This document shows, one piece after another, positions 1,482-63,915 of a stretch of 64,000 bases of DNA. The notes under the pieces are model-generated. The model saw only the letters and a program-made list of their open reading frames with translations, made no database searches and was not told the DNA's origin. Within the stretch, counting starts at the first letter, position 1. Every line of letters starts with the position of its first letter. Source of the stretch: Deltaproteobacteria bacterium (GTDB taxonomy: Bacteria; Acidobacteriota; Thermoanaerobaculia; Multivoradales; JAHZIX01); assembly GCA_022601195.1 (NCBI GenBank), contig JAHZIX010000008.1, forward strand, positions 167,429-231,428, in the 5' to 3' direction. A program made the position numbers and the translations under genes.

Positions 1482-1781
1482 CTAGCACCACTTGCTCACT
1501 ACGCAGCTCTGAGAGAGGATGCACTCCCCATGCCTGGATGCTTGAGCCTCCAGTTCGGGCAAAGTCTCATTCTCACAGATGCTCTCGTTCGGCGCATTGA
1601 GAGACCGAAAGGCACCATTCGGCAGCCCAGTCTCACAGTCCTTCAGGACGAGAGTGGCTTTCCAATGGCAGCTTCCACTCGGTTCCGGTACCGCGCTTGC
1701 CACGGTCGGGCGCAAAGCCAGACCGCCCCCAATCATCATCACCACCAGACTCAATAGAACCAGCGTTTTCCAACTCTTCAT
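1482..1781 (-). CDS. small secreted cysteine-rich protein (99 aa, 6 Cys)
   Basis: GGAGGA RBS just upstream of ATG 1781; signal peptide MKSWKTLVLLSLVVMMIGGGLALRPTVASA; 6 Cys in the mature part, which ends in KWC. Confidence 0.8.
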   Translation of the reverse strand: MKSWKTLVLLSLVVMMIGGGLALRPTVASAVPEPSGSCHWKATLVLKDCETGLPNGAFRSLNAPNESICENETLPELEAQASRHGECILSQSCVVSKWC

Positions 1782-1939
1782 AGCTATTCCTCCTCCAGAG
1801 AAAAGAGCCACTCCTCGATGGAGCAACCCCGAGAGCTCAACTCGCGCTCCTCTGAAGAGCGCTTCCTAGAGCCCCCTACATCGAGTTTTGGTCGGTGGCT
1901 TTACATCGCCCCCAACCTCGAAGAAAGGCGTCTATATGA

Positions 1940-1969
1940 AAGAACGGGAAAGTGAAGTGAAACTCATCA
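1940..1969 (-). promoter_or_regulatory. putative ECF promoter TGATGA-N17-CGTTCTT upstream of the 6-Cys protein
   Basis: Minus-strand TGATGA gtttcacttcactttcc CGTTCTT has the same TGA-N20-CG geometry as the elements at 58630 and 63266; lies between the ECF gene and the small gene. Confidence 0.45.
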
Positions 1970-2112
1970 ACTGACTTGAAAAATTTCGCATAAGAAGTCA
2001 GATTCACTAGAACCTTGAGCGGGCAGTATCCTTGCCGTCGAAGGTTCGGTTCGCACGAACCTGTAATATTGGAACGGAGACCGAAGGGCCGGAAACACCG
2101 CGCTCAGGAGCG

Positions 2113-2658
2113 CTAGTGCAGCTCGCTCCGCAACCAGGCCCTGGCCATCTGCCACCGGCGTGAAACCGTAGCTGTCCCTAAACCCAGAAAATCGGCAATT
2201 TCCGGAATCGTTAGACCGCCGAAATAGCGGAGCTCGACAAACTGCGCCGCTTCAGGATCGAGGTCCGCGAGACGCTCGAGGGCTTGATCCAAAGCCAGAA
2301 AGTCGAGGTCTACGGCGGGCAGTTCCACTTCTTCGAGGGCCACCGTTTTGCAAGCGCTACCCCGCTTCAGAGTCGCCTTGTTCCGAAAACGATCAACCAG
2401 AATCTGACGCAAGATCTTCGCTGCTAGAGCAAAGAATTGGAGCCGATTTTCCCAGCGAAGGGAACCGTTTGCTTCCAACTTCAGATAGGCCTCGTTGACT
2501 AGCTCCGTTGGCTGAAAGGTGACGTTCTCCCGCAAGCGCAGTTGACGGTCAGCGATCCTGCGCAGCTCCGGGTAAATTCGCTCGAACAGCCGGTCCGCGG
2601 CCCCCGACTCACCCTCTTGCCACGCCTGCAGCAAGATCGTGATGTCCCTGGATTCCAC
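2113..2658 (-). CDS. ECF RNA polymerase sigma factor, TIGR02999-like (kinase-associated type); no adjacent kinase
   Basis: DITILLQAW, YPELRRIA, FQPTELVNEAYLKL, RQILVD, VELRYFGGLT, TVSRRW; GTG 2658 with GAGGA RBS preferred over the longer ORF. Confidence 0.92.
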   Translation of the reverse strand: MESRDITILLQAWQEGESGAADRLFERIYPELRRIADRQLRLRENVTFQPTELVNEAYLKLEANGSLRWENRLQFFALAAKILRQILVDRFRNKATLKRGSACKTVALEEVELPAVDLDFLALDQALERLADLDPEAAQFVELRYFGGLTIPEIADFLGLGTATVSRRWQMARAWLRSELH

Positions 2659-3067
2659 CTCGTCCTCATCGCCCGCCAATGGCTTCCCTCCCCAACTTGC
2701 TCGCTGAAGCTCTCGCTGCCAACAACCCCCATGGTCAGCTCTTGCTGCCGAGAACCGCTTCCCAATCAGCAAGGAAGGATTCTCTAACCTGAAAGATAGC
2801 CGGAATATAGCAGGCTTCGAATACAGGGGGCGAGGCAGACCATATTGGAAACCGTTTTCCTGAAGAGAGTAGTCCAACAGAAGAATCTCGACCGTCTGCT
2901 GTCGTCACCGAAAGGAGTTTCTGCAGGAAAACTGTAGATTCCAGGGCCTTGTTGACTAAGCGACTCGACCTCTCCGTTGAACCCCACCTCGACCCAAAAG
3001 AGAATCTGCGCCCCTTGAGCAGGCCAGGACGAACCAGGAGAATCTCTATATTCTTGGAAAGTTGGAA

Positions 3068-3145
3068 TGGTACCGAGAGGCGGGCTCGAACCGCCGACCT
3101 CCTGATCCACAGTCAGGCGCTCTAACCAGACTGAGCTACCTCGGC
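3068..3145 (-). tRNA. tRNA-His (GUG), CCA encoded
   Basis: Cloverleaf GCCGAGG-TA-GCTC-AGTCTGGTTA-GAGC-G-CCTGA-CTGTGGA-TCAGG-AGGTC-GGCGG-TTCGAGC-CCGCC-TCTCGGT-A-CCA. Confidence 0.97.
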
Positions 3146-3156
3146 ACAGGAGGGGA

Positions 3157-3185
3157 ATCCTAATCTTTTGCCTTTTCCATGTCAA
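3157..3185 (-). promoter_or_regulatory. sigma70-type promoter of tRNA-His
   Basis: Minus-strand TTGACA (3185-3180), 17-nt spacer, TAGGAT (3162-3157), 11 nt upstream of tRNA position 1. Confidence 0.8.
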
Positions 3186-3238
3186 AGTCTCCGGGAGGGA
3201 TCGGCTCACAGGGGAGCCGGAAGGGATCGAGATGGAGC

Positions 3239-4291
3239 TTAGGGGGCCGCAGGGACCGCTTCGAGGAGATTCTCGGAAAATCGGCATCCGGAGTCGAGCC
3301 AGTGGCGCTGAAATCGAAACCCTCCTCGAGTAGCGAGGGTGCTCAGCTGGTCGAGATCGTATTTGTGGGAGCTCTCCGTATGGATGCTCTCGCCGGCTTC
3401 GAAGCTGACTTCCAAGCTGAGCTCGCGGATCGGCACCTTTTGGGCCTTCCGGCTCACCAGATAGGCTTCTACCCGCCCTAGAGAGACGTCATAGCGGACT
3501 TTGTAGTCGAATTGGGTGATATCGAACTCTCCCCCCAACTCCCGGTTGATGCGCACCAACAAATTGAGGGTGAACGCACGGGTGATCCCAAGGGTGTCGT
3601 CGTAGGCCGCCAGGAGCTCGCCTTGATCCTTCTTGAGGTCGGCTCCGAGCAGGAAGTGCTCCCCCGGGGCAAGGGCGCGGCGTACCTCCTCGAGGAGGCC
3701 CAAAGCGCTCGCTGCATTCAGATTGCCGATGGAAGAGCCCAGAAAGAGAACTAGATTATGGGTTCCATCGGGAGATCGCTCTTCTTTAGCCAGATAGTCC
3801 AAGGCTCGCTGGTAGTCCGACACGAACCCAGTGATGGAAAGACCGGGAAAAGCGGTCAACAACTCTCGGGAGCTTTTTTCGAGAGCGGACTCGGAAACGT
3901 CGATCGGTAGGTAGCGAAGGCTCCCTTGACGCTTCAGGATGGCCTCGATGAGGAATTTCGTCTTGGTGGAGCTCCCACTACCGAGTTCGATGAGGCGCAA
4001 GGGAGAGGGAAGGCAGTCCACTAGATCGCCACTGGAGGTTTCTAGGATCTCGCTCTCGGCCCGCGTCAAATAGTACTCCGGCACCAAAGTGATGGCGTCG
4101 AAGAGAATCGAGCCCAAAGAGTCGTAGAGTAACCGAGGGGGAAGTTTCTTGGGAGAGCGGCTCAGACCAATGCGCACGTCTTCTGCGAACCCTCCGGGAG
4201 CCTGCGAGGTCTCCAGCCGGAAGAGAGTCAAGCGATCGGAAACCTGTCGCCGTCTGCCTGGCGAGCGGGAAGACTCCCTCGAGCCCGTCAT
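3239..4291 (-). CDS. egtD: L-histidine N-alpha-methyltransferase-like (EgtD / Methyltransf_33 family)
   Basis: PKKLPPRLLYD, PEYYLTRAE, IELGSGSSTKT, FLGSSIGN, AYDD, IHTESSHKY; ATG overlaps the aroDE stop (ATGA at 4291-4288). Confidence 0.85.
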   Translation of the reverse strand: MTGSRESSRSPGRRRQVSDRLTLFRLETSQAPGGFAEDVRIGLSRSPKKLPPRLLYDSLGSILFDAITLVPEYYLTRAESEILETSSGDLVDCLPSPLRLIELGSGSSTKTKFLIEAILKRQGSLRYLPIDVSESALEKSSRELLTAFPGLSITGFVSDYQRALDYLAKEERSPDGTHNLVLFLGSSIGNLNAASALGLLEEVRRALAPGEHFLLGADLKKDQGELLAAYDDTLGITRAFTLNLLVRINRELGGEFDITQFDYKVRYDVSLGRVEAYLVSRKAQKVPIRELSLEVSFEAGESIHTESSHKYDLDQLSTLATRGGFRFQRHWLDSGCRFSENLLEAVPAAP

Positions 4292-5766
4292 TTGGAAAGG
4301 CCCGCTGCCAGGCCAAGAGCTTCGCTGACAGCTTCCCGGGGCAACTCCCTCCCGGTCATCAGCCGGAATTGAACCACCGCCTGGTGGAAGAGCACTTCCC
4401 GACCATCTACGGTGATCCACCCTCGCTCTTGGCTCTCCTGTACTAGAGCCGTCGGGGACTCGCCGTAAACCATATCCACCACCATGGCCCTTTTTGGTAA
4501 CCGATCCAGGTCGAAAGGTAGAGGATCTTCCTCGGAGCGACCCAATGGCGTAGCGTTGATGAACAGATCAAAGGCCTGGGGTTCCAGGTCCTCTAGCAGC
4601 AAGAAGGGAAGCCCTAAGTCGTAGGCTGCCCGCCTCCCCCGTTCGGCACTGCGATTTGCCATCACCACCTCCGCCTGTGCATGCAGCAGACCGACCGCTG
4701 CGGATCGACCAGCACCGCCGCAACCGACGACCACCGCTCGGCGCCCCTCGAGGGAAATACCTCTCAACCGCAATGGCTCGACAATGCCCGCGGGATCGGT
4801 AGATTCGGCCTCCCACACTCCACTATTCCAAACCAGAGTGTTGGCTGCTCCAATGCGCTCCGCAAGGGGGCTCGACGCGCCGGCTACCGCCAGGGCTACT
4901 CGTTTGAAGGGGGAGGTGACGCTCAGGCCCCGTAATGGCAGACCGATGGCGCTCAAGGCCTCGCTCTCCACCACCTCCAACCAAAAGTCGCCAAAAGACT
5001 CAGCATGAAAGGGGATGTAGAGAGCCGGTAAGCCCAACATGGAGTAGGCACGATTGTGAATCAGGGGTGACAACGAGTGCTCCACCGGGCAACCGGCAAT
5101 ACCGAAGAGGACCTCTACCGTCGGAAGGTTGGGCAATCCGAAGTGACTCCGGAGTCGCTCTACCGTGGGCTGCCCTGGCGCTCCCGGCGCTCCTCCGGCA
5201 GCACCGTAGACCACTGGGGCCCCTAGATGGGGCGCCACCAGCCGGCTCCAAGCTCCACTCGCACCCGAAGCAAAGGACACGACATCCGAGCGCTTCAGTT
5301 GAGCCAGCATCTGTAGGGGCGCCAGCTCTTGTCCGGCCTGCTGAGCCTGAGGAATCAACTTGTAAAGCAGGGCTGGAGTCCCAGCCATTTTCGAGCAACG
5401 ACGAGCCAAGTCGATGGGATCAGCAGCCGATCCGTGCCAGGACAGGATTCTCTGGGGTCCAGGAATGGCCGCCAACACTTCGGCACCGAGATCTCTATCC
5501 GCCTCTAGGTCGATCAAGTCGAATCCTGCCCGAGCTGCGGACACTAGGGCCTCAGCTCGGCGGGCCGCACCACCACTGAACTGCCCGCCTTCGGCGGAGC
5601 TACGGAGGGTGTACAGCAACTGGCCTGGAAACTGGCTCCGGAGCCACTCCAAAGAGAGCTCACCCGTTAGATCCGCCCGCACCTCCAGGATCGCAACCTC
5701 GTCGAGGTTCGCGGATGCCAAGGTATCGGCAGAGGTAAGGGTCGCAACAAGCTTAGGTTTTTGCAC
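4288..5766 (-). CDS. aroDE: bifunctional type I 3-dehydroquinate dehydratase / shikimate dehydrogenase
   Basis: DHQase I motifs EVRAD, YTLRS, LSWH, YKL, APGQ; SDH motifs HSLSP, SVTSPFK, GAANTL, STD, GCGGAG, NATPLG, DMVY; GTG 5766 start is approximate. Confidence 0.9.
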   Translation of the reverse strand: MQKPKLVATLTSADTLASANLDEVAILEVRADLTGELSLEWLRSQFPGQLLYTLRSSAEGGQFSGGAARRAEALVSAARAGFDLIDLEADRDLGAEVLAAIPGPQRILSWHGSAADPIDLARRCSKMAGTPALLYKLIPQAQQAGQELAPLQMLAQLKRSDVVSFASGASGAWSRLVAPHLGAPVVYGAAGGAPGAPGQPTVERLRSHFGLPNLPTVEVLFGIAGCPVEHSLSPLIHNRAYSMLGLPALYIPFHAESFGDFWLEVVESEALSAIGLPLRGLSVTSPFKRVALAVAGASSPLAERIGAANTLVWNSGVWEAESTDPAGIVEPLRLRGISLEGRRAVVVGCGGAGRSAAVGLLHAQAEVVMANRSAERGRRAAYDLGLPFLLLEDLEPQAFDLFINATPLGRSEEDPLPFDLDRLPKRAMVVDMVYGESPTALVQESQERGWITVDGREVLFHQAVVQFRLMTGRELPREAVSEALGLAAGLSK

Positions 5767-5988
5767 AGGGGAAGAGCCGGAGAGTTTGACGGCATTACAC
5801 CAGGGGTCCCACAAGCTGTCAAGGAGACCGTCACCCGTGGGCGCTTCCCAAAATCGGCCAAAACCCAAATCGGGCCCCCAAGGCAACAGCTAGGAGAATA
5901 GGTAAGGTCCTTGGGACGGACCGCCTCGTGGTACCATCTCCCGGTTCCGCCAACCGCTATATCTGCCAAGACTAAGGAGAAATTCGTG

Positions 5989-7665
5989 ATGAGCGAGGAG
6001 GCCCGGGAAATCCTTGAGCTCGACGTCGTTTTCGTCGGCGCTGGGCCAGCCAGTATGGCCGGCGCCTACCACCTGGGGCGACTAGTTCAGCAGCACAACG
6101 AGACCGCAGAGAAGGCTCTCGAAGTCGAGATCGCCATTCTGGAGAAGGGCAAGGAAGTTGGAAGCCACGCTCTCTCCGGCGCCGTCGTTGACCCCAGGGC
6201 CCTCAAGGAATTGTTTCCGGAGGACTGGCAGAGCGCTCCCTTCGAAGGCGAGGTGGCGAGCGACAAGTTGTGGTGGATGACTCGGGGCAAGGCCTTTCCC
6301 ATGCCGGTGCCACCGATGCTCAACAACTCAGGGAAGTATGTCGCCTCCTTGGGCAAGCTGCTCAAATGGATGGAGAGTAAGCTCGAAGACGTTGGCGTCG
6401 ACGTATTCTGTGAATTCCCTGCAACCCAAGCACTCTTCGACGGAGATCGCGTCATCGGAGTCCGAACCGGTGACAAGGGGGTCGACGAGCACGGCGAGCA
6501 AAAAGCCAATTACGAGCCAGGAGTCGACATCCACGCCAATGCCGTCGTTCTCGGCGAAGGCCCTCGTGGCACCCTGGCCAAGCAACTGGAATCCAAGCTC
6601 AATTTGGGAGACGGCAAGAACCCACAGATTTACGCCATCGGCATCAAGGAAGTCTGGGATCTGCCCCCCGGCAGAATCAAGGCCGGCGAGGTGATCCACA
6701 CCATGAACTGGCCCCTCGGGTTTAGCACCTTCGGCGGCGGCTTCATCTATGGCATGAAGGACGACCAGCTGATCGTCGGCCTGGTCGTGGGCCTGGACTA
6801 CAAGAATCCCTTGCTGGATCCTCACGAGGAGTTTCAGCGATTCAAGACTCACCCTCGCCTGCGCGCCCTGCTCGAAGGAGGCAAGATGGCCTTCTACGGC
6901 GCCAAGGCTCTTCCGGAAGGGGGTTGGTGGTCCATGCCCAAGCTCTCCGGCGACGGTTTTGTGCTCTGTGGCGACTCGGGAGGTTTTCTCAACAGCCAGA
7001 GACTCAAGGGAATTCACCTGGCCATGAAATCGGGCATGTTGGCAGCCGAGACGATCTTCGAAGGCCTGGTCCAGGGGGAAGTCTCCGCAACTTGCCTGGA
7101 GGGCTACCAGCAACGCGTCGACGAGAGCTGGATCAAGAAGGAGCTCTTCCCGGTCCGTAACTTCCACCAGGCCTTCGACAAGGGACTCCTGGCCGGCATG
7201 GTTCAGGCGGGACTGGGCATGGTAACCGGTGGCCGAGGCTGGGGGTTCAAGGATCGCCTGACCACCGAGGCGGGGCACGAGCGCTTACAACGATTGGACC
7301 AGCCGGGAGCACCACCGGAACCTCAGCGACTGGCCTTCGATGGTCAGCTCACCTTTGACAAGCTATCGGACCTCTACAACTCCGGGACCAGCCACGAGGA
7401 AGACCAGCCGGTTCACCTGTTGGTCGAAGACACCAACATCTGCGTCGATCGCTGCGCCAAAGAATTCGGCAACCCTTGCCAGCATTTCTGCCCGGCTCAG
7501 GTCTACGAGATGGTCGAGGACGAGTCCACCGCTTCCGGAAAGCGACTGCAGATCAACGCCAGCAACTGCGTTCATTGCAAGACCTGTGATGTCATGGACC
7601 CGTATCAGATCATCACTTGGGTTCCCCCGGAAGGGGGAGGCGGGCCGAACTACAGCAAGATGTAG
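5989..7665 (+). CDS. electron transfer flavoprotein-ubiquinone oxidoreductase
   Basis: AAGGAG RBS; VGAGPA FAD motif, GSHALSGA, KGIHLAMKSG, C-terminal 4Fe-4S motifs FCPAQVYE and NCVHCKTC, PPEGGGGPNY. Confidence 0.95.
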   Translation: MSEEAREILELDVVFVGAGPASMAGAYHLGRLVQQHNETAEKALEVEIAILEKGKEVGSHALSGAVVDPRALKELFPEDWQSAPFEGEVASDKLWWMTRGKAFPMPVPPMLNNSGKYVASLGKLLKWMESKLEDVGVDVFCEFPATQALFDGDRVIGVRTGDKGVDEHGEQKANYEPGVDIHANAVVLGEGPRGTLAKQLESKLNLGDGKNPQIYAIGIKEVWDLPPGRIKAGEVIHTMNWPLGFSTFGGGFIYGMKDDQLIVGLVVGLDYKNPLLDPHEEFQRFKTHPRLRALLEGGKMAFYGAKALPEGGWWSMPKLSGDGFVLCGDSGGFLNSQRLKGIHLAMKSGMLAAETIFEGLVQGEVSATCLEGYQQRVDESWIKKELFPVRNFHQAFDKGLLAGMVQAGLGMVTGGRGWGFKDRLTTEAGHERLQRLDQPGAPPEPQRLAFDGQLTFDKLSDLYNSGTSHEEDQPVHLLVEDTNICVDRCAKEFGNPCQHFCPAQVYEMVEDESTASGKRLQINASNCVHCKTCDVMDPYQIITWVPPEGGGGPNYSKM

Positions 7666-7724
7666 GAAGGCAGGTGGGGGTGAGGCAGCAGGGACAGAGC
7701 AAGTCCGGAAAAGCTCTTCTGCGC

Positions 7725-9626
7725 TCATTTCCTAGTTGCCGAGACGACCTCGAGTAGGTTCATACCTCGGCGAGACCCTCTCAAAGGGTCGAACCGAGGA
7801 TCCTGACTCAACCAAAGCAGCCTCCAATCGGAGCGCTCCGCTGCAGCCGCTTCAAAGAGATCCAAGGCCGCCTCCTGGTCTCCTGCTGCCAGGGCTGCGT
7901 AGGCCAACTCCCCAGGAGCGACGAAAAACTGCGCTCCCAGTTGCTGGAGGGCTCGATAACGCCGATCGGCGTAGTCCTCGAGAGCTACCTTCGCCGCCAA
8001 TCGCGAAAAGTTCTCCAATCGCTCCGAAGACGCTCCTGCGAGCTCCAAGACCCGCTTCGCTTGCTCTGCCGCTGCCTCTGCCTTGCCTTGGTGGGAGAGG
8101 CTCATTTGTAACATCAGGTGCCCTCCCATGTAATTGGGAGAAATGCTCACCGAAGTCCGAGCAACGGCCTCGGCTTTCTCGAATTTCCGAAACACGAAGT
8201 AGAGCCAGGCAGAATCTGTCGTGATCACTGGAGAGAGGGGGTCGAGGTTCCTCGCCAATTCAAATTCCGCCACCGCTTCCTCCTGGTGTCCAAGGGCTGA
8301 AATCAATAGCGCTTGAGCATGATGAGCAGAGGCTAGGGATGAATTGAGCTCCAGGGCACGGCGAAGGGACTCGCCAGCGGCGACCAGGTCCCAGTCATAG
8401 AGCATCTGGATCCGCCCAAGGAGCACCCAGGCGGAAGCTAGGTTCGGGTCCAATTCCAAAGCTCGTTGCGTAGCGAGGCGAGCCGACGGAACTCTCTTCG
8501 CAGGATGGACAAGCTCCCTCAGGTGCGCCTCCCCTAGTACCACGTGCGCCGGTGCCAGCCCCGGGAAGACCGCCAGGGCTTTCTCGCTGGCTTCCACTGC
8601 AGATAGATTTCCCTCTCGGGTTCTCTGAGCGAGGAAACGCCGAGCGGTGAGAAAATAACCATAAGCTTCCGGGGGAGCGATGCGTTCCCAGGGCTGCGGT
8701 TGCTGAGAGGTCTTGGGGAGCTCCAGGGAAAGCGCCCGAACCGTCCCTCTCCCTACCTCTGCAGGCAGGTGAAAACGCTCTTCCCAGGATCGCTCGAAGA
8801 GCCCTGCCCAAACTTGGACCTGATCTTGGGCTCGGATGAGCTGAATTGCTGCTCGAACACGGCTTCCTCGCCGCTGAACCGTGCCCTCGATGATGTAACT
8901 GACCCCAAAACGCTGGCGAAGCTCCGGCAGAGGCGGAACGGCCGACTGGAGACGCATGGAAGTGGAACGGGCGAGCACTCCGACCTTCGGGGAAAAAGCG
9001 ACTCCCAACTGCGCAATCAGCTCATCGGTGAGCAAGTTCGGTAGCTGATGACCGAGGGGCTCCAAGCCCGTGCTCTCGAGGGGCAACACGATGAGTCGAG
9101 GCATCTCTGGGGGAAGCTCTGCTGGGCCGCCAGCTCGGTACTCGGCTAGAAAGGGGCCACGGAAAACGACCACCACGAGAAAGACTAGCAAGCCCCCGAG
9201 AGCCACCCCCCAACTCCTGCGGTTCCGGCCTTGGTCGGGAGAATGATCTGGCGAGGCAATGCCTTCTTCCGCTGGTCTCCATTCTGCAGCGGCGAGAAAC
9301 CGGTACCCTCTCCTGGGCACGGTTTCCAGCCATTTCGGATCTTGGGCAGTGTCTCCAAGAGCAATTCGAATTTGCCGAATACAGACATTGAGACTCTGAT
9401 CGAAGTCCAAGTGGGTGTCTGGCCCCCAGACCTCTCGACGAATGTCGTCCCGGGAGACCAAGGCACCGGCTCGGCTCAGCAGGACGGCCAGCACTTGGGC
9501 AGGTTTCGGCTGCAGCGAAATCCACTCTTCACCTCGGCGTAGCCGCAAGGTGTCCAACTCCAACAGAAAATCGCCGAATGCCATGGTTCCACGGAGGACT
9601 TCGCTGCTCGTTCTAGCTGGCTTCAT
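7725..9626 (-). CDS. membrane-anchored transcriptional regulator: OmpR/CadC-type winged helix + TM + TolB-N-like + TPR
   Basis: LQPKPAQVL, VWG, SLNVCIRQIRIALGD, ETVPRRGYRF; one TM; LIVLPL..., IEGTVQR, QLIR...QVW; TPR repeats ending DPRFDPLR. Confidence 0.9.
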   Translation of the reverse strand: MKPARTSSEVLRGTMAFGDFLLELDTLRLRRGEEWISLQPKPAQVLAVLLSRAGALVSRDDIRREVWGPDTHLDFDQSLNVCIRQIRIALGDTAQDPKWLETVPRRGYRFLAAAEWRPAEEGIASPDHSPDQGRNRRSWGVALGGLLVFLVVVVFRGPFLAEYRAGGPAELPPEMPRLIVLPLESTGLEPLGHQLPNLLTDELIAQLGVAFSPKVGVLARSTSMRLQSAVPPLPELRQRFGVSYIIEGTVQRRGSRVRAAIQLIRAQDQVQVWAGLFERSWEERFHLPAEVGRGTVRALSLELPKTSQQPQPWERIAPPEAYGYFLTARRFLAQRTREGNLSAVEASEKALAVFPGLAPAHVVLGEAHLRELVHPAKRVPSARLATQRALELDPNLASAWVLLGRIQMLYDWDLVAAGESLRRALELNSSLASAHHAQALLISALGHQEEAVAEFELARNLDPLSPVITTDSAWLYFVFRKFEKAEAVARTSVSISPNYMGGHLMLQMSLSHQGKAEAAAEQAKRVLELAGASSERLENFSRLAAKVALEDYADRRYRALQQLGAQFFVAPGELAYAALAAGDQEAALDLFEAAAAERSDWRLLWLSQDPRFDPLRGSRRGMNLLEVVSATRK

Positions 9627-9679
9627 GGGTGAACTCAGGAACCGCTTAGGGAATCCTCAGCCTCTCTTAATGGATTCAT
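9622..9679 (+). promoter_or_regulatory. phased direct repeats (YTYA core, ~11-bp period), candidate wHTH operator
   Basis: CTCAG 9634, CTTAG 9645, CTCAG 9656, CTTAA 9666, flanked by TTCAT at 9622 and 9675; lies between the divergent regulator and peptide genes. Confidence 0.5.
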
Positions 9680-9924
9680 CTGCCGAGCCTTTCTACGGTC
9701 GAGACATGACGACAGCGAACGCAAGCAGGGATCACCATTCGGACCAATTCCACCCTTCGACCCACTCCCCGGTAGCACCAGGAGGGGGCAGCACCCTGCC
9801 TTCATCTCCGTCGACTCACCTCGGAGCAGTCTTCCAGGGTCCAGGCACCAAGATCCTTCGCCGCGTCGCCTCCCAACCACCGTGCCCCGGCTTTCGCGGC
9901 ACAAAGAGAAAGGACCGAAGCCTC

Positions 9925-10263
9925 ATGAAAACTCGTACCCTCTGTTGCCTGACTGTATTCGCCTTAGCCATCGTCCTCGGTTTCAACACCTACGCTGAGC
10001 TACCAAATTCCGAATCGGTCCCAGGGGTCGTGGCGGAAGCGGTGACGGAAGCCCCTGGAGTCAACGCACAACCGGATGCAGTGAACACGCCCGCCCCCTT
10101 TTTAGGGAATCAACAACCCGTCTTTCTGGGAAGTACTGCTGAATGTGATCAAGCTTGCCAGAATCAACTCGAGAGCTGCTTGCGGAACTGTGGCACCAGC
10201 GGGCCTGCCTGCGGATGCCTTTCCCAGTACATCTCCTGCACCTTGGCCTGTTGCGGTCCCTGA
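9925..10263 (+). CDS. secreted cysteine-rich pre-pro-peptide (112 aa; 9-Cys C-terminal core)
   Basis: AAAGGA RBS, ATG 9925; signal peptide to ...NTYA; acidic Pro/Ala-rich spacer; core CX3CX6CX3CX6CXCX6CX3CC; followed by a terminator. Confidence 0.85.
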   Translation: MKTRTLCCLTVFALAIVLGFNTYAELPNSESVPGVVAEAVTEAPGVNAQPDAVNTPAPFLGNQQPVFLGSTAECDQACQNQLESCLRNCGTSGPACGCLSQYISCTLACCGP

Positions 10264-10297
10264 GCTCCAGCTCGCACCTCGACAGATCTAACGAAAT

Positions 10298-10338
10298 AAG
10301 GGCGGTGTCGACCCTCGCGCCGACACCGCCCTTGTTTT
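10298..10338. terminator. intrinsic terminator, probably bidirectional
   Basis: 13-bp stem AAGGGCGGTGTCG / CGACACCGCCCTT followed by GTTTT, preceded by A-rich bases; between convergent genes. Confidence 0.8.
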
Positions 10339-10362
10339 GGGCTCGTTGTGTTCAGATGAGAC

Positions 10363-16767: not shown

Positions 16768-16789
16768 CGGCGTCCCTCCTAACTCCACA

Positions 16790-51765: not shown

Positions 51766-51863
51766 TATGAAAACTTATCACCATGGATGAAATACGAGAG
51801 AGCCCCCTACCCTATGGAGACCCTGCCCCTCTCGAAGGGAAGCTACAGGAGCCAACCACAGAA

Positions 51864-52562: not shown

Positions 52563-52571
52563 GAACCCATC

Positions 52572-57000: not shown

Positions 57001-57185
57001 TTCGGATTCTCCTCTCCTGGCGTCCCAAAAGCCCGGAAATTCTATCGACTGGGATCACATTTATCGAAGGAGAGCCTAGCACTCTCTTTCCAGGAGCCGT
57101 CCGACGAAGATCTCTGACAGCGCTGGCAAAGGAGATAAGATCTCCCCACACGACTGGCCTCCCAGAAAACGAAAGGACCGCGCCG

Positions 57186-58595
57186 ATGATCTCGACCCTG
57201 CTCTGGATGAGCCTGGCCTTTAGTCAGGCACCTACCACCTTTGATACTCACTTCACCGGCACCACCCTGAGATTCGACTACTTCCACAGTGGCACCGCTG
57301 GAGAAGAGCACATCAGCTTGGATCGCTTGCGTCAGGAAGGAGACTGGCCAGGCTCCAGGACTCGGATGATCGACGACACCCAATTGGGCAAATACCTCTT
57401 CGAGGTCCTCGATGCCGACAGCGGAACCCTGCTCTACTCTCGCGGTTTCGCGAGCATCTACGGAGAATGGGAGACAACCGGCGAGGCTCGAGGCGGAAGT
57501 TGGCGAACCTTTCATGAATCTCAGCGATTCCCGGAGCCCCGCAAACCCGTCCGATTGGTCCTCAAGAAGCGCGATGCCGAAGGGGGCTTCGTTGAGTTCT
57601 TCTCCACATCGATGGATCCCAACGACCGCGGCATCGATCGCTCGGCTCTCACCACCGCCGGTACGCCCTGGACCGTCTTCGAAACCGGCCCGCCGGCAAA
57701 GCGGGTCGATCTACTCATTCTCGGCGACGGCTATGGCAGCGGTGAACAGGAGACCTTTCACCAGCGGGTAAAACATCTCACAGCTCAGCTCTTCGCTTCC
57801 GAACCATTCAAGAGTCACCGAGGAGACTTCAACGTCCGTGCGGTGGATGTCGTTTCCCAGGATTCTGGCATCACCGATCCCAGGACGAAGACTTGGCACC
57901 AGACTGCCCTTGGCCTCAGCTATGACGCCTTTGGCTCCGAGCGCTATGTCCTCACCGAGCAGAATCGGGCGATTCGGGAGGTAGCGGCTCTAGCCCCCTA
58001 CGATGCGCTGATTCTTCTGGCCAACAACGAGAAGTACGGTGGAGGAGGAATCTTCAACCTGTGGACCACGGCAGCAGCTGGTAGCGGCCAAGCCGACTAC
58101 TTGGTGGTGCACGAATTTGGTCATTCTTTTGCCGGGCTCGCCGATGAGTACTACACCTCTCCGGTCTCCTATGAGGACTTCAATGCTCCTGGCGTCGAGC
58201 CCTGGGAACCCAATATTACGGCCCTTCTCGACCCGAAGGCCGTCAAGTGGGGAGACCTGGTCCCGTCAGAGACGCCACTGCCAACCCCTTGGAGCCAAGC
58301 GGAGTACGACGTGATCTCACGAGCTTTTCAGGCCGAGCGACAAGAGTTGCGATCCTCCGGAGCCTCGGAAGAACGAATGAATCGCTACTTCGCCGAGGTG
58401 AAGAAGCGCACCGAACCCTTGCTGGCTGGAGAAAAGTACGCTCCGAATGTGGGCGCTTTCGAGGGAGCCGGTTACCAAGCCAAAGGGCTCTACCGGTCGT
58501 CGGTCGACTGCATCATGTTCACTCGCAATCCCGAGCACTTCTGCCCGGTTTGTTCTCGAGCCATCGAGAAAGTGATCGCTCTCTATACGGAATAG
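57186..58595 (+). CDS. M64-family (IgA peptidase-like) metallopeptidase
   Basis: LRFDYFHSG, LGDGY, KYGGGGIFN, HEFGHSFAGLADEY, EPNIT, CIM, FCPVC. Confidence 0.92.
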   Translation: MISTLLWMSLAFSQAPTTFDTHFTGTTLRFDYFHSGTAGEEHISLDRLRQEGDWPGSRTRMIDDTQLGKYLFEVLDADSGTLLYSRGFASIYGEWETTGEARGGSWRTFHESQRFPEPRKPVRLVLKKRDAEGGFVEFFSTSMDPNDRGIDRSALTTAGTPWTVFETGPPAKRVDLLILGDGYGSGEQETFHQRVKHLTAQLFASEPFKSHRGDFNVRAVDVVSQDSGITDPRTKTWHQTALGLSYDAFGSERYVLTEQNRAIREVAALAPYDALILLANNEKYGGGGIFNLWTTAAAGSGQADYLVVHEFGHSFAGLADEYYTSPVSYEDFNAPGVEPWEPNITALLDPKAVKWGDLVPSETPLPTPWSQAEYDVISRAFQAERQELRSSGASEERMNRYFAEVKKRTEPLLAGEKYAPNVGAFEGAGYQAKGLYRSSVDCIMFTRNPEHFCPVCSRAIEKVIALYTE

Positions 58596-58629
58596 AGACT
58601 CCCTTGGGGGCTCCCCGAATCGAATTTCC

Positions 58630-58661
58630 TGAGCCCTATTCTTCCTTTCCTACGCGTTACC
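58630..58661 (+). promoter_or_regulatory. putative ECF promoter TGAGCC-N17-CGCGTTACC
   Basis: TGAGCCCTattcttcctttcctaCGCGTTACC; both boxes and their spacing are identical to the copy at 63266-63297. Confidence 0.75.
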
Positions 58662-58732
58662 TTCCGGGGCTCTCGGCGGTGGGCTCTTCCGACCACGAAA
58701 AACCGCCTTATCCAAAAGAGGGAGGATTCACG

Positions 58733-59620
58733 ATGTTCTATGCAATGAGCTGTCCTAGGTCGATGCTGGGAGCCTTAGTGGTTCTTATCGCTTGCCTTTT
58801 CAGCGTGGCTGCTCGGGGTCAATCAGATTTCGATCCCGGGTCCGTAGTGTTGACCACCAGTCAGGAGTTCCCGACTTTTCTGACTTTCGACCAACTCAAC
58901 CTGGACGGGGAGCTCTGCCCTACGAGCTTCGGCGGCCCGCTGGGGGCTGCGACCGGGGAGTCCCTAGCCCCTACCGATCCGGAAGCGATCCGGGTCTACC
59001 TCGATCTTCAGGATAAACCCCACGGAGGAGGAGATGATGGGCCCATTGCCAACATAGGCTCCCTGAGGCCAGATAGTGGTTCCGGCGGCGATACTTGTGG
59101 AAGTCCCAGGGAGCTGTTCAGCGACTTCCTCAAGTTGTGCCTGGTGAGCGTCGATACCATCACCACAGCTTGCGGCGAGTGGAAGCTCGAAGTGAGCCTG
59201 GACCCTCTTTTCCCTCAACCGGTCCAATTGTGGAATGTCACGAATACCGGGAATGGCGGCTTTTTTGTGACCGACGTCACCCTGGCTTTGATGCTGACCT
59301 TTACCCATACGATTGACAATAGGGTGATTATTCTTCGCCGGACCCTCGTGGTGCGCGGTGGCGGTGATTGGGCCCGGCAGGCAGGGCCAGGGGGGTTCGA
59401 AAGCCCCGGTAACTTTGAGATCGACACCGATTGCGATTGTTTCGGCGACCGAGAGGTGATGGGAACCACAAATTTCTTTCCCGGCTGGAGAGTTCCCGTC
59501 GGGCCGCCAGGGCTCATGGACACACAAGAGATCGAGCCGGCTCCGTTCTGCCTTACCAACTACGAGGGAGGAGGCCAGCTCTGCTTCGCGCCGGTCATGG
59601 CTCCTGAGGAGAAACGGTAA
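58733..59620 (+). CDS. hypothetical secreted protein (295 aa, 8 Cys in the mature part)
   Basis: GGAGG RBS before ATG 58733; signal peptide to ...SVAARG; 3' end overlaps the kinase 3' end by 26 bp. Confidence 0.8.
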   Translation: MFYAMSCPRSMLGALVVLIACLFSVAARGQSDFDPGSVVLTTSQEFPTFLTFDQLNLDGELCPTSFGGPLGAATGESLAPTDPEAIRVYLDLQDKPHGGGDDGPIANIGSLRPDSGSGGDTCGSPRELFSDFLKLCLVSVDTITTACGEWKLEVSLDPLFPQPVQLWNVTNTGNGGFFVTDVTLALMLTFTHTIDNRVIILRRTLVVRGGGDWARQAGPGGFESPGNFEIDTDCDCFGDREVMGTTNFFPGWRVPVGPPGLMDTQEIEPAPFCLTNYEGGGQLCFAPVMAPEEKR

Positions 59621-62567
59621 GAGGGGTACCCAACTCTTTTTCGAGCTCCAATAGAGCCTGTCGAGCTCGTTGAGTCGCCGGATGGGATTCGCCACGGGAC
59701 TCCAACAAGATCTGAGTGCTACCGACCAGGAGCGCCTGAGCCTCGGCCACCTGTCCAAGGCGGCCGAGGCCCAAGCCGAGGAGGCTCTCACTCTCCGCAA
59801 GCCGCCAATGTCCGGCAGGGAGTGCCTGCCGCCGAATAGCAACCGCCTCCCGGAGTAACCCAACCGCCTCTTCGGTTCGGCCTTGTTCGAGCAGCAACCG
59901 GGCCAGACCGGTTTGAGTGAAAGCCAAATCTGGATGGGATTCCGGCAAGGCGGACCGACGCACCGCCAGGGCTTTTCGGTACACGGCCTCCGCCTCCGGA
60001 AGCTTTTCCTGTTGCAACAACAGGGAACCCAGGTTGTTGAGGGAGAGGCCGACATCCGGATGATCCTCTCCCAAGGCGGACCGACGGATTTCCACAGCTC
60101 TGCGCTGGAGGGCTTCTGCCTCCACCAAATCGCCTTTGGCTTTGGCTACAAAGGCCAAGTTGTTGAGGCTCGACGCGACCGCCGGATGCTCCGGCCCGAG
60201 CGCCGTCTTTCGCATCGCCAGGGCTTGCCGATAGATTTCCTCTGACTCTGCCAAATCTCCCCGATGACGCACCACAGCAGCGAGGGTATCGAGGGTTGTA
60301 GCCGTATCCGGGTGGCTCTCCCCCAGAGCCTTTCGGCTGACCTCCAAGGCTTGGCGTAGTAGGGGTTCCGCCCGATCCAACTCCCCGCGGCGAAAATAGA
60401 GAGTGGCCACCGTGGTCAGAATGACGGCCACCCGGGGGTGCTCCTCCCCAAGAAGTCTCTCGTTGAGCTCCAAAGCGCGTAGCAGCACCGGTTCGGCAGC
60501 CTCATAGTCTCCACTCTGGTAGAGCAAAGTCCCCGCGTTGAGCTCGCCGGTGGCCACGTGGGGATGGTCCTCCCCGAGGGCCAAGCGTTGAATCATCAAG
60601 GCCTGCTGGACCAATTCGGCGGCTGCACTGTACTCCCCAAGGGAAGAACGCAACACCGCTAGGTTGTTGAGACTCGAGGCGACCTCCGGATGGTTCTTCC
60701 CCCACAGCCGTCGCTGAATCTCCAATCCCTCCTCTACCAAGAAGATCCCTTCTTCCACCTCACCACCAGCTCCCATGGCCATGCCCACCCCCACCAAACT
60801 CTTGGCAACAGCGGGATCCTCTCTTCCCAGTTGACCCTCGCGAATGCCCAAAGCTTCACGGTGCAATTGAGCCGCCCGCTCGAATTCTCCTTTGGCGTAC
60901 TCCAATTGAGCCAAATGGTCCAGACTCTCGGCCGCATCCAGGTGGCTAGCTCCGAGAGCGCCACTGCGAACTTCGAGAGCGCCCTCCAGGAGAGGAGCCG
61001 CCCGCTCGAAGAGACCCAATTTGCGGTAGATCTCCCCCACCGTGTCCATCATCACAGCACGGACCTGGGGCTCCGTACCCGTCTCTTGCTCGAGCTGGGA
61101 AGCGCCCCGATCTAGAATTTCCCGAGCCGTGATCCGCTCGCCCCGCGCCGTCTCCGGGTCCGAAATCTCGAACAAACCCAGGACAAAATCCAAGGCCTGT
61201 TGAGCTTTGGCTCGCTCCGTGTCCGCCCGGTCTCGCTCGCGACCGATCTCGAGTCTCTGCCAGGCCAAAGAGAGGACTAGGGCCGCCAACAACACCATGG
61301 CAAGAGAGAGCACCCTATTGCGCCGAATGAACTTACTGGCCCGGTAGGCGAAAGTGCTACGCCGGGCGACGACGGGCCGGCCTTCGAGATACCGGCGAAG
61401 GTCTTCCGAGAGCTGTTCGACACTGCCGTAACGACGGTCTGGCTCTGGGCTCAAGGCCTTGAGAACGATGTTGTCCAGATCTCCCTTGAGGAGGCGACTC
61501 AGTCGGTGGGGCTCTTCTCCCCGCAGCCGGCTGACCTGATTCGATTCCCTCGGCGCAGCTGGGTCGTTCTCTGACTGAGTGGCTTGCCCCGAGGTCGATT
61601 CGAAAGCAGCCCCCAAATCCCGGGTCACAATGCTGCTGGGCCGCTCCGGCGAGGATTCGCGCAAAGACCGAGCTTCCCCCGCCCCTAGCTGCTGGACAGG
61701 CTGATTGGGTAGGCGTCCGGTCAGTAGCTCGTAGAGCAAGACCCCCAGAGAATAAACATCGCTCCCCGTGGTCACCGGATCCCCGAGAATCTGCTCTGGG
61801 CTGGCGTAGCGAGGCGTCAAACGCCTCTGAGCGGTCACTGTTGGCTGGCCCGAGGGCGCAGACTCGTCCGCATCGAGGAGCTTGGCGATGCCAAAATCAA
61901 GCAGCTTCGGCTGGCCCTCCTCGGTGACGAGAATATTCGATGGCTTCAAGTCCCGATGAATTACCAAGTTGCGATGAGCAAACTGAACGGCGCCGCAAAC
62001 CACCCGGAACACCTCCAAGCGGCGCCGCACAGATAGCTGATGAATGTCGCAGTAGCGATCGAAGGGCAACCCTTCGATGTACTCCATCACGAAGTAAGGC
62101 TGGCCCTCCTTCGTCGTACCTCCATCCAAAAGGCGAGCGATATGGGGATGATCCAAACGGGCTAGGATGTCTCGTTCCTGGTGAAAGCGGCGCACGATCT
62201 CATCGGAGTCCATGCCCCTCTTGATCAGCTTCACGGCGACCACGTGCTGGAAGGCAGGGTCTTCACGGCTGGCGAGGAAGACGGCTCCCATGCCTCCTCG
62301 ACCGATCTCCCTGCCCACCCGATAGGGACCTATCTTGTGCAGACGGGCTTGGGAGGACGACAGCAGCGGGGCGAGGGATTCAGCAGCAGGAGATTCGAGA
62401 AAACCGCCAGCAGAGTCATAGGATTCGAGTAGAGACTCCACTTCCCTTCTCAGGGCTGGTTGCTCCCCACAACTCCGGTCGAGAAAATCGCTGCGTTGGG
62501 CCGGCGGCAGCTCCAGGGCTTCGGCAACGACCGCCTTGACCCGCTGCCAGCTCCCTTGACTCTCCAT
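59595..62567 (-). CDS. Hanks-type Ser/Thr protein kinase with TM and extracytoplasmic TPR repeats
   Basis: GRGGMG, VAVK, HRDLKPSN, DFG, TPRYASPEQ, DVYSLG; TM; ~42-aa repeats LGxxHPxVAxSLNNL. Confidence 0.95.
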   Translation of the reverse strand: MESQGSWQRVKAVVAEALELPPAQRSDFLDRSCGEQPALRREVESLLESYDSAGGFLESPAAESLAPLLSSSQARLHKIGPYRVGREIGRGGMGAVFLASREDPAFQHVVAVKLIKRGMDSDEIVRRFHQERDILARLDHPHIARLLDGGTTKEGQPYFVMEYIEGLPFDRYCDIHQLSVRRRLEVFRVVCGAVQFAHRNLVIHRDLKPSNILVTEEGQPKLLDFGIAKLLDADESAPSGQPTVTAQRRLTPRYASPEQILGDPVTTGSDVYSLGVLLYELLTGRLPNQPVQQLGAGEARSLRESSPERPSSIVTRDLGAAFESTSGQATQSENDPAAPRESNQVSRLRGEEPHRLSRLLKGDLDNIVLKALSPEPDRRYGSVEQLSEDLRRYLEGRPVVARRSTFAYRASKFIRRNRVLSLAMVLLAALVLSLAWQRLEIGRERDRADTERAKAQQALDFVLGLFEISDPETARGERITAREILDRGASQLEQETGTEPQVRAVMMDTVGEIYRKLGLFERAAPLLEGALEVRSGALGASHLDAAESLDHLAQLEYAKGEFERAAQLHREALGIREGQLGREDPAVAKSLVGVGMAMGAGGEVEEGIFLVEEGLEIQRRLWGKNHPEVASSLNNLAVLRSSLGEYSAAAELVQQALMIQRLALGEDHPHVATGELNAGTLLYQSGDYEAAEPVLLRALELNERLLGEEHPRVAVILTTVATLYFRRGELDRAEPLLRQALEVSRKALGESHPDTATTLDTLAAVVRHRGDLAESEEIYRQALAMRKTALGPEHPAVASSLNNLAFVAKAKGDLVEAEALQRRAVEIRRSALGEDHPDVGLSLNNLGSLLLQQEKLPEAEAVYRKALAVRRSALPESHPDLAFTQTGLARLLLEQGRTEEAVGLLREAVAIRRQALPAGHWRLAESESLLGLGLGRLGQVAEAQALLVGSTQILLESRGESHPATQRARQALLELEKELGTPLTVSPQEP

Positions 62568-62584
62568 CTTCGGCGCCCGAGGCC

Positions 62585-63151
62585 TCAGGCGCTGCCCATG
62601 CGGCGAAAGAGCCAGGCCTTGGCAACACTCCACTCTCTCTTCACTGTTGCCGGAGAAATGCTCATGACCTCCGCCGTCTCCACAACACTCAGTCCAGCGA
62701 AGAACCGTAACTCCACGACCCGAGTCTGCTGAGGATCGAGGGCTGTCAAATCGGTCAATGCTTGATCCAGCGCCAGCAGATCCACCGACGGCTCAGGCAC
62801 CGCGTCTCGCGCTTCGTCGAGGCTTAATTTCTGCACCTCACCACCGCGTTTGGAAGCACTCCTCTTGCGTGCATGATCGACCAGGATTCTCCGCATCATT
62901 TGGGCAGCGACACCAAAGAAATGGGCTCGATTCTGCCATCGCACTCTCTTCTGGTCGACCATCTTCAAATAGACCTCATTGACGAGAGCGGTCGCTTGCA
63001 AGGTATGCCCTCGCTTCTCACCAAAGAAGTAACCGGCAGCCAACCGGTGGAGCTCGTCATACACCAAGGGTAAGAGCTCTTCGAGAGCCTCTACGTTACC
63101 GGTGCTCCAGTCGAGAAGAAGACCTGTCACATTTTCTTGTTGATGATTCAT
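62585..63151 (-). CDS. ECF RNA polymerase sigma factor, TIGR02999-like
   Basis: VTGLLLDW, VYDELHRLA, HTLQATALVNEVYL, RRILVDHAR, VELRFFAGLS, TVKREW; directly upstream of the kinase. Confidence 0.95.
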   Translation of the reverse strand: MNHQQENVTGLLLDWSTGNVEALEELLPLVYDELHRLAAGYFFGEKRGHTLQATALVNEVYLKMVDQKRVRWQNRAHFFGVAAQMMRRILVDHARKRSASKRGGEVQKLSLDEARDAVPEPSVDLLALDQALTDLTALDPQQTRVVELRFFAGLSVVETAEVMSISPATVKREWSVAKAWLFRRMGSA

Positions 63152-63265
63152 AAAAAAATAGAAATTCCACCCAGACGATTTATTCCTCTTCGAGAATCCG
63201 GCCCGAGTAACTCCTACTCTATTCTACGGTCCACCGACTCCCAACGTTAAATAACCCACATTTTT

Positions 63266-63297
63266 TGAGCCCTTTTTCCAGATCTCTGCGCGTTACC
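63266..63297 (+). promoter_or_regulatory. putative ECF promoter TGAGCC-N17-CGCGTTACC
   Basis: TGAGCCCTttttccagatctctgCGCGTTACC, ~63 nt upstream of ATG 63361; second copy at 58630. Confidence 0.75.
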
Positions 63298-63360
63298 AAC
63301 CGTGGCTCGATAGGCGAGCCCAAAAATAAGGGCGATCATCTACCTTCATTGGGAGACAAA

Positions 63361-63915
63361 ATGAACAATCAGCAGGAAAAAACCAATCTAGCTCGCACGG
63401 GCTTTCTACTACTCCTAGGGCTGGCGTTATTAGTCCCCAGTGCCGCACAGGCATATATCAATTGCTATAGCTATGGCCCTGGAGGGATCCTTCTCGGCCC
63501 TTGTGAGAATGGATATAACGGCATCGTTCCGAGCTGCTCCGTCGTCGGCTACGCCAACGATCCGATAAGCCAAGGAAACACTCCTGACCTTCAAGCTCGT
63601 CTCATGGACCTGGGAAGCGGCGACTACGACGCCGTCACCATCACTCTTCCAGAAGGTTCCAATCGTGAAGCTTACCCGACCGGAGCCCCCACAAAGGGTA
63701 GCGCCAGTACTACCCTCCAGGCCCTTTTCCGTGCGGCTGACGAGGTCGGAGATGGCTTGAAAAAAGGAGAACACCCCTCCACCGATGGTGTTTTACTGGT
63801 TTTCGAACGGGGAATTCTCGACCAGTTCCCCGCCGGCGAACCGATTCCTATTGAAGAGCTGTTGGGTCTCGCTGACTCGGCCCGCTCGATTACCGGGTAC
63901 TACGCTCACCGGTAA
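63361..63915 (+). CDS. hypothetical secreted protein (184 aa) with a Cys/Gly/Tyr-rich mature N-terminus
   Basis: GGAG RBS before ATG 63361; signal peptide ...LLVPSAAQA; 3 Cys in the first 30 mature residues. Confidence 0.8.
   Translation: MNNQQEKTNLARTGFLLLLGLALLVPSAAQAYINCYSYGPGGILLGPCENGYNGIVPSCSVVGYANDPISQGNTPDLQARLMDLGSGDYDAVTITLPEGSNREAYPTGAPTKGSASTTLQALFRAADEVGDGLKKGEHPSTDGVLLVFERGILDQFPAGEPIPIEELLGLADSARSITGYYAHR

Follow-up and report, generated by a model that had tools for sequence, protein, structure and literature searches.

Small secreted cysteine-rich genes as a likely accessory part of ECF43 sigma factor/kinase signalling units in an acidobacterial genome

Among the extracytoplasmic function (ECF) sigma factors, those of group ECF43 are described, in the available parts of three reports, as lacking the acidic patch of region 2.2 and as being switched on when a partner Hanks kinase phosphorylates a Thr at that place (PMC13147305, PMC8999054, PMC7826278). 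The region-2.2 consensus is given there as QTTA or STTA, and phosphorylation of the sigma factor is attributed to PknS in the EcfK-PknS pair of Xanthomonas citri and to PknT in the EcfP-PknT pair of Vibrio parahaemolyticus (PMC13147305, PMC8999054). PknS has a periplasmic tetratricopeptide repeat (TPR) region, and the signal that it perceives is, according to the accessible part of that account, still to be found (PMC13147305). Here we analyse a stretch of 64,000 nucleotides (the window, in which all plain coordinates are given) lying on contig C31 of an 8.01-Mb acidobacterial genome, G000, where two ECF43 sigma factors and a further regulator stand beside genes for secreted proteins. Genes for small secreted cysteine-rich proteins are over-represented beside the kinase-TPR genes of this genome, and they are likely an uncharted accessory part of the known ECF43/kinase signalling system.

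The regulators of the window and their neighbours (S1 to S4) are as follows.
1482..1781, reverse strand: S1, small secreted protein of 99 aa with 6 Cys (open reading frame (ORF), Cys count, positive signal-peptide heuristic).
2113..2658, reverse strand: ECF1, ECF43/TIGR02999-type sigma factor, an orphan with no adjacent kinase (PF07638, 7.4e-47; TIGR02999).
7725..9626, reverse strand: ToxR/CadC-like one-component regulator with a winged helix-turn-helix (wHTH) domain, one transmembrane (TM) helix and an extracytoplasmic TPR sensor (Trans_reg_C, 4e-16; TPR families; TM flag).
9925..10263, forward strand: S2, small secreted protein of 112 aa, divergent from the CadC-like gene (ORF, signal-peptide heuristic).
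58733..59620, forward strand: S3, secreted protein of 295 aa with 10 Cys, convergent with the kinase gene and overlapping its 3' end by 26 nt (ORF, signal-peptide heuristic).
59595..62567, reverse strand: Hanks-type Ser/Thr kinase with a single TM helix followed by TPR_10/TPR_12 repeats over about 500 aa (Pkinase, 1.5e-42; TPR_12, 7.9e-94).
62585..63151, reverse strand: ECF2, ECF43/TIGR02999 sigma factor (PF07638, 4e-58; TIGR02999, 219.7 bits against a cut-off of 126.15).
63361..63915, forward strand: S4, secreted protein of 184 aa with 3 Cys, divergent from ECF2 (ORF, signal-peptide heuristic).

A first-pass annotation of the window had named these ORFs, and they exist where it placed them. 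It also had the kinds of regulator right: two TIGR02999 ECFs, a Pkinase-TPR_10/12 protein and a Trans_reg_C protein with TPRs, the last two carrying TPR arrays that lie C-terminal to a single TM helix and are predicted to be extracytoplasmic. Its statements that the four neighbours are secreted and hold no recognised domain agree with our results, since all four pass the signal-peptide heuristic and none of them matches a Pfam or NCBIfam model. Its description of the neighbours as small and disulfide-rich suits S1, with 6 Cys in 99 aa, and S2, with 9 mature Cys, but neither the gene at 58733, which encodes 295 aa, nor that at 63361, with 3 Cys.

The third locus resembles EcfK-PknS and EcfP-PknT in its sigma family and in the adjacent Ser/Thr kinase gene, the start of which lies 17 nt from the ECF2 stop. 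As in PknS, so far as the available part of its description goes, the kinase combines one TM helix, here a single hydrophobic helix after the kinase domain, with a C-terminal TPR region, predicted to be extracytoplasmic, and the sigma factor keeps the Thr of region 2.2; the stretch reads QATA in ECF2 and shows no acidic DAED-type motif. ECF1, which scores 192.7 bits on TIGR02999 (cut-off 126.15), reads QPTE at the aligned place, also with the Thr and with no such motif; the Thr is a putative phosphorylation site in both. In contrast to the described pairs, ECF1 has no adjacent kinase, its neighbours being S1 and a tRNA-His gene. The TPR array of the kinase spans about 500 aa, whereas three TPR repeats are given for PknS in the accessible text. 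The family is also hugely expanded in G000, with 72 TIGR02999 matches above cut-off (ECF1 and ECF2 among them) and 114 kinases, and a subset of its units differs further in having an adjacent small secreted Cys-rich gene. A kinase adjoins 57 of the 68 called ECF43 genes, and Q[PTA]TA-like stretches with the third-position Thr kept occur in most of the 38 ECFs caught by the pattern (30 of the 68 were not caught). The TPR region of the window kinase also reaches 300.1 bits on the NCBIfam model NF040586 (FxSxx-COOH system TPR protein; cut-off 300), probably through generic TPR_10/12 likeness.

Altogether 142 regulator units were counted in the 8.01 Mb of the genome. As about 1.1 are thus expected per window (Poisson P of about 0.1 for three), the presence of three in 64 kb is unremarkable. 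The first-pass annotation had taken the three loci for one recurring system, an idea that does not survive the comparison: no family is shared between the loci, and S1 to S4 are mutually unrelated and have no paralogues in the 8.0-Mb genome by tblastn. The regulators of the window are three ordinary, unrelated copies of a very large sensor repertoire, and their core mechanism is known. The new part is an accessory layer, in which about one-tenth of the units have an adjacent gene for a small exported, putatively disulfide-rich protein. No small Cys-rich partner of ECF43/kinase units was found in the accessible portions of the literature searched, which did not include Iyer et al. 2020, reportedly a survey of ECF43 gene neighbourhoods that may bear on novelty.

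The association was measured across the whole genome, as the first-pass annotation had proposed. Gene calling relied on codon log-odds learned from long ORFs and gave 6169 genes (87% coding), of which the signal-peptide heuristic flags 1293. A candidate was defined as a secreted protein no longer than 200 aa whose mature part holds four or more Cys, and 69 genes qualify. A candidate lies within 1 kb of 12 of the 73 kinase-TPR genes, compared with 95 of 4412 background genes (odds ratio (OR) 8.9, p=1e-7), so the proposed test comes out positive beside kinase-TPR genes. The corresponding counts are 5 of 68 for ECFs, 2 of 15 for long wHTH regulators, 20 of 200 for any regulator (OR 5.05) and 18 of 142 when counted by unit. 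The commonest place of a candidate is directly after the kinase gene and co-directional with it, the alternative being divergence from the sigma gene. When only the gene that follows at once on the same strand is considered, it is a candidate for 5 of 73 kinase-TPR genes versus 4 of 1292 long controls (p=4e-5). S2 and many of the 69 candidates begin with a signal peptide, continue with an acidic or Pro-rich linker and end in a Cys-rich core.

Such an excess could arise with no working link, if units and small genes were both fast-turnover accessory genes, co-located or copied together in variable regions, with S1 and S2 a coincidence. The heterogeneous orientations would fit this explanation, but other small ORFs of accessory type are not enriched beside the regulators: the OR is 1.0 for secreted small ORFs with 0-1 Cys, 1.6 for small ORFs with four or more Cys but no signal peptide and 1.4 (p=0.23) for low-scoring ORFs of 60-130 aa. 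Two further genomes, examined solely around their ECF43 genes, were also positive within the 20-kb surroundings of the units. In G002, which belongs to another genus and lacks family B (described below), both candidates in 335 kb around 20 ECF43 genes lie 167-189 nt from a kinase, the 1-kb zone covering 16% of non-regulator bases (0.16 squared, about 0.026). In G100, from another taxonomic family (62% G+C; codon model retrained), five of the six candidates in 684 kb around 38 ECFs fall within the zone (15.9% of bases, p=5e-4), compared with 3 of 11 Cys-poor secreted ORFs and 42 of 215 non-secreted small ORFs. Since both tests compare places within the neighbourhood of the units themselves, they argue against a simple 'variable region' artefact. 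We regard the absence of any working link as unlikely overall; for S1 and S2 specifically, pure co-location is more probable than that.

Clustering of the small secreted proteins with phmmer yielded two regulator-linked families, A and B; otherwise, the small proteins beside different units are unrelated in sequence. Family B comprises proteins of about 90-130 aa that start with a hydrophobic stretch, signal or anchor, and share the invariant columns W, C, C, CC, C (5 Cys). Its profile (hmmsearch against all ORFs of at least 40 aa, E<0.01) finds 20 copies in G000, 14 of them within 1.6 kb of a regulator, at eight loci. Of these 14, 11 lie downstream of a kinase and co-directional with it, singly or in tandem sets of 2-3, 2 are divergent from an ECF and 1 is just upstream of an ECF. 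Copies of the family lie at C39:93506-94676, C33:18403-19983, C18:266150-267398, C50:28970-29254 and C23:163146-164839, among other places. There are no hits in the window part of C31, so S1 to S4 are not members of the family.

Family B also occurs in 6 of 120 other genomes of the order (G001, which is of the same genus, G017, G038, G088, G100 and G115), where 14 of its 19 loci have an ECF43 or kinase/TPR match within the 1.5-kb flanks. This adjacency persists in three taxonomic families, a further point against mere co-location, and the place downstream of the kinase again predominates, being kept in G001, G017, G038, G088 and G100. By our own count over 121 genomes, family B is present in 7 of the 18 with at least 25 ECF43 matches and in 0 of the 103 others. 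The association of small Cys-rich genes with ECF43-kinase-TPR units, which the first-pass annotation had proposed to be lineage-wide, is thus seen in G000, in two other genera and, through family B, across three taxonomic families. Among 1.84 billion sequences, 211 representatives match family B at E<=0.001, and all but one of the best 150 of these 211 have 82-142 aa. The exception, P0021, has 2393 aa and 19 stretches that match positions 15-62 of the profile; it could be a repeat protein composed of part of the domain, or low-complexity noise. The family has no Pfam or NCBIfam match. Its AlphaFold model, a small beta domain of four strands, is confident in the core (pLDDT 82-94; 76.9 over the whole model). 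Foldseek gave 0 matches to it in the PDB at E<=0.001 and a wide VIA-align search a best Z of 3.0, a result that does not show a new fold.

The excess beside kinases does not depend on the two families or on the genes that drew attention to it. S1 and S2 were removed because a hypothesis should not be tested on the data that suggested it; with families A and B removed as well, 7 of the 73 kinase-TPR genes still have a candidate within 1 kb (OR 5.4, p=7e-4).

We tentatively favour, with a rough probability of 0.45, the reading that the small proteins are local regulon members and exported outputs. The kinase would sense an extracytoplasmic signal and phosphorylate the region-2.2 Thr, and the sigma factor would thereby be turned on; the small proteins would belong to the local sigma regulon and be exported once the unit fires, for example as antagonistic or envelope- or host-directed peptides, with any feedback on the sensor being secondary. 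The genes, their domains and the conserved statistical association are observed; co-regulation, export, disulfide bonds and any biological role are inferred from them. This reading is preferred because the orientations are mixed (downstream, divergent and convergent) and tandem arrays occur, because the gaps of 88-570 nt do not indicate tight coupling, and because larger secreted proteins (>200 aa) are over-represented beside kinase-TPR genes as well (40 of 73, OR 2.2). A further reason is that co-diversification with the kinase is seen for the sigma factor and not for family B: the mirror-tree comparison of family B with the kinase sensor gave r=0.01 (p=0.44, n=8, a sample of low power), versus r=0.66 (p=0.03) for the sigma factor and the kinase. 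The co-evolution check suggested in the first-pass annotation therefore came out negative for family B.

The same mirror-tree result counts against the possibility, the first of two options in the first-pass annotation, that the exported Cys-rich protein binds the TPR ectodomain of the neighbouring kinase or CadC-like sensor, whether as autoinducer, inhibitor or periplasmic partner, which we consider doubtful. Such a ligand or co-sensor would sit well with the commonest place of the candidates, directly downstream of the kinase and co-directional; with the retention of that place by family B in five other genomes and the confinement of the family to genomes rich in ECF43 matches; with a TPR region predicted to lie outside the cytoplasm; and with the signal of PknS, itself a TPR-bearing ECF43 kinase, being described as still to be found in the available part of its report (PMC13147305). 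Two or three tandem copies per kinase nevertheless misfit a one-to-one partner, the majority of units have no such gene, and the proteins beside different units are unrelated. In a three-component version, which would hold for part of the ECF43/Hanks-kinase signalling of these Acidobacteriota, the exported protein would be a ligand, decoy or co-sensor of the kinase TPR ectodomain, family B the archetype and S1 and S2 fast-evolving variants; we judge this version improbable.

If the three-component version were true, it would amount to a bacterial counterpart of the plant pairs of Cys-rich peptide and receptor kinase, such as SCR-SRK and EPF-ERECTA, with dozens of private channels per cell. The likeness, an exported Cys-rich protein whose gene lies beside that of a transmembrane Ser/Thr kinase, is one of analogy only, and there is no relation in sequence or fold. 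For the extracytoplasmic TPR ligands of ECF43-linked kinases, the conserved neighbours, above all family B, provide concrete candidates.

Several results weigh against the regulon reading that we favour. Co-regulation lacks sequence support, because the sequence upstream of a small gene resembles that of its own ECF no better than those of other ECFs (17.5 versus 17.46 matches of 30, p=0.28), and no spaced promoter dyad shared by at least 8 of the 68 ECF upstream regions was found. Public RNA runs covering window positions 1400-10400 are not listed. By the criteria used here, 82-90% of the units have no such neighbour, a low penetrance, and the p-values are overstated, because paralogous units and genes in tandem do not count as independent cases. 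Signal peptides, TM flags and gene calls come from our own heuristics and not from Prodigal or SignalP. With S1/S2 and families A and B set aside, neither ECFs (3 of 68, p=0.15) nor wHTH-TM regulators (1 of 15, p=0.26) show a significant enrichment, a result that also suits a mere co-location and goes against the first-pass proposal of an enrichment beside these regulators. The association thus holds for kinase-TPR operons and is not independently supported for the partners of S1, an orphan ECF, and of S2, a CadC-like regulator. S1, moreover, has a weak codon score of 0.06 per codon, compared with 0.2 for its ECF, and no homologue except itself in 5.8 billion clusters.

Further searches for regulatory elements were of little help. 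Enrichment of 6-mers upstream of the 68 ECFs was weak (best p=1.7e-4 before correction), and a generic scan for sigma-70 promoters and terminators found sites no more often than in shuffled sequences (2 versus 1.4; 8 versus 9.9). The first-pass annotation had placed a candidate binding element in each of the three loci, and the repeat search turned up nothing convincing: only imperfect inverted repeats of 10-16 nt at 1400-3100, two imperfect ones at 9500-10000, one partly intergenic and neither persuasive as an operator, and none at 63100-63400 or 58550-58800. A comparison with contigs of X2 and X4 yielded only short, near-identical or conserved-gene pieces, none of them over S1 or S2.

Whether S1 and S2 are genes at all has to be asked, since S1, and less likely S2, might be a chance ORF in an intergenic stretch. 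The codon log-odds is 0.06 per codon for both (0.12-0.21 for the neighbours), S1 has the lack of homologues already noted (among 40 relatives there was nothing beyond a single row at E=0.003), and atlas look-ups gave only chance-level matches for either (best feature scores 0.76-0.81, TM-score <=0.51). On the other side, both are preceded by a Shine-Dalgarno sequence (GGAGGAGG for S1, AAAGGA for S2), encode a typical signal peptide and are followed by a hairpin, a small one in the case of S1, and the opposite-strand ORFs score negative in both cases. For S2 there is in addition a single homologue, P0002, with 76% identity, in which the signal peptide and all mature Cys are kept and the linker is the variable part, with an in-frame indel of 3 residues. 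Because the preservation of the Cys domain together with an in-frame linker gap is the signature of a translated gene, S2 is rated as real on this sequence pattern. S1 is probably a real gene, and a chance ORF is a very improbable explanation.

S1 lies 332 nt downstream of ECF1 in the same direction, and the pair has no counterpart in the relatives searched. Likeness to S1 had been noticed by eye in three kinase-adjacent genes, g1827, g6053 and g3823, and was discarded when phmmer did not cluster them with it. Orthologues of S1, S2 and their regulators are lacking even in the genome of the same genus; the best CadC-like matches have about 30% identity. The S1/ECF1 pair also adjoins a tRNA gene, and both facts speak for coincidence. 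We treat S1 and S2 as orphan members of a loose class of unit-adjacent small proteins. Should there be no working link, the lesson would be a warning that gene pairs as similar in appearance as these three 'cassettes' may consist of unrelated genes, even within one window.

In S2, a linker rich in Pro, Ala and Glu joins the signal peptide to a C-terminal domain with 9 Cys; of its 11 Cys in total, 2 lie in the signal peptide and 9 after it. The precursors of barrettides have a signal-leader-core layout and are sponge-encoded, according to the available part of the report (PMC12426817). Knottin-like precursors of disulfide-bridged peptides consist of a signal peptide, a leader that is discarded and a Cys-rich core. 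S2 resembles such precursors in its three-part layout, with the linker as the variable part; it differs in being bacterial, and no relation in sequence or fold exists. Between S2 and a convergent DUF4097 gene lies one further feature.
10298..10333, no strand assigned: G+C-rich hairpin with a 15-bp stem followed by T's.
This hairpin is probably a two-way terminator.

The regulator divergent from S2 has the architecture of the CadC/ToxR type, with Trans_reg_C at residues 34-110, a hydrophobic helix near residues 139-160 and the large outer sensor C-terminal to it. It was rejected as an orthologue of CadC (30.5 bits, cut-off 400) or of HilA/EilA (67 bits, cut-off 589). Its sensor contains TPRs, unlike that of ToxR and CadC, and is of a kind common to the Ser/Thr kinases of relatives: residues 170-628 match the C-terminal parts of such kinases with 27-31% identity (L007, L008, L009). 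Since the sensor is homologous to the C-terminal halves of kinases, one sensor module serves two output domains. The gene for ToxS adjoins that for ToxR, and ToxS acts on ToxR. The presence of the small exported protein gene S2 beside the regulator recalls this arrangement by analogy only, S2 being divergent, not co-transcribed and a 9-Cys protein with one relative. A complex prediction for the sensor (residues 165-633, 7-row alignment) and mature S2 (residues 25-112, 2 rows) gave a score of 0.00 and a mark of 0.32, with the fold of the partner uncertain, and counts neither for nor against an interaction.

A looser likeness is that to the RRNPP regulators (Rap, NprR, PlcR, PrgX), cytoplasmic receptors for short linear peptides that are re-imported, because here too a TPR-bearing regulator lies beside a small exported product. 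The first-pass annotation had drawn this parallel. Mature S1 has 6 Cys and mature S2 has 9, each in about 75-90 aa, and 5-9 Cys is the range of the products considered here. Membership fails because the TPRs lie beyond the TM helix and the products are not short linear peptides; neither the cytoplasmic receptor nor the short re-imported peptide of RRNPP systems is found.

At the third locus, S3 belongs to a family of proteins of about 300 aa, frequently encoded in tandem arrays, with members in 11 of 40 relatives. The order S3-kinase-ECF is conserved in G001, where S3 has 47% identity and is convergent with the orthologous kinase and ECF genes. The family is mostly unlinked to such regulators, only 2 of the 7 loci retrieved having a kinase or ECF within 1.5 kb, as would be expected with no working link. 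S4 has a single homologue, P0155 (59% identity), which keeps 2 of the 3 Cys, and with 3 Cys, 2 of them conserved, S4 is not disulfide-rich. The G001 contig ends short of the expected S4 position; the only S4 match in that genome is fragment-like and lies elsewhere, among unrelated genes and not beside an ECF, which again fits the absence of a link. At this locus, an ordinary ECF43/kinase operon lies among genes for secreted proteins, and S3 and S4 are ordinary secreted neighbours.

Family A, the second regulator-linked family, consists of secreted proteins of about 200 aa with 6-10 Cys and D-x-D-x-D-G-like stretches. It forms three tandem pairs, all within 1.6 kb of a regulator and two of them convergent with a kinase-TPR gene (G000, with approximate ends, C19:131297-132650, C19:794735-795999 and C41:341612-342970). 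Elsewhere in the genome, C28:215611-218018 holds five tandem paralogues for secreted proteins of 94-112 aa with 7-8 Cys in a C-terminal knot and has no regulator nearby. This array and the 69 candidates suggest that the genome encodes many small, disulfide-rich secreted proteins that are still unannotated. In G100, three ECF43 matches with identical scores lie 1.26 kb apart at C6:4149374-4152365, each with one in-frame TGA, and are possibly a tandem repeat of a broken sigma gene.

The nearest RecA matches in named records are metagenome-assembled genomes (MAGs) of Thermoanaerobaculia (81-82%) and of Holophagales (80%), from which we take the organism to be an acidobacterium. The sole public run that contains the entire window, and that may be its source, is labelled as a sponge metagenome. 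Next to the ECF1/S1 pair stands one RNA gene.
3068..3145, reverse strand: tRNA-His (ARAGORN and Rfam).
Just upstream of it, within 3068-3185, is a near-consensus promoter-like site (TTGACA, 17 nt, TAGGAT).

The remaining genes of the window are of the housekeeping kind: fab genes, recA, an EgtD-like gene, AroDE, ETF-QO and a glycosyltransferase cluster. At 13859-14227, 3.6 kb from S2, a gene for an SdpI/YfhL-family membrane protein overlaps the stop of a DPP-IV/S9 peptidase gene by 4 nt; in Bacillus, SdpI is both the immunity protein and the receptor for a secreted peptide toxin. At 51783-52498, a Phd/YefM-like antitoxin gene lies beside a PIN-domain gene, and the two are likely a type II toxin-antitoxin pair.

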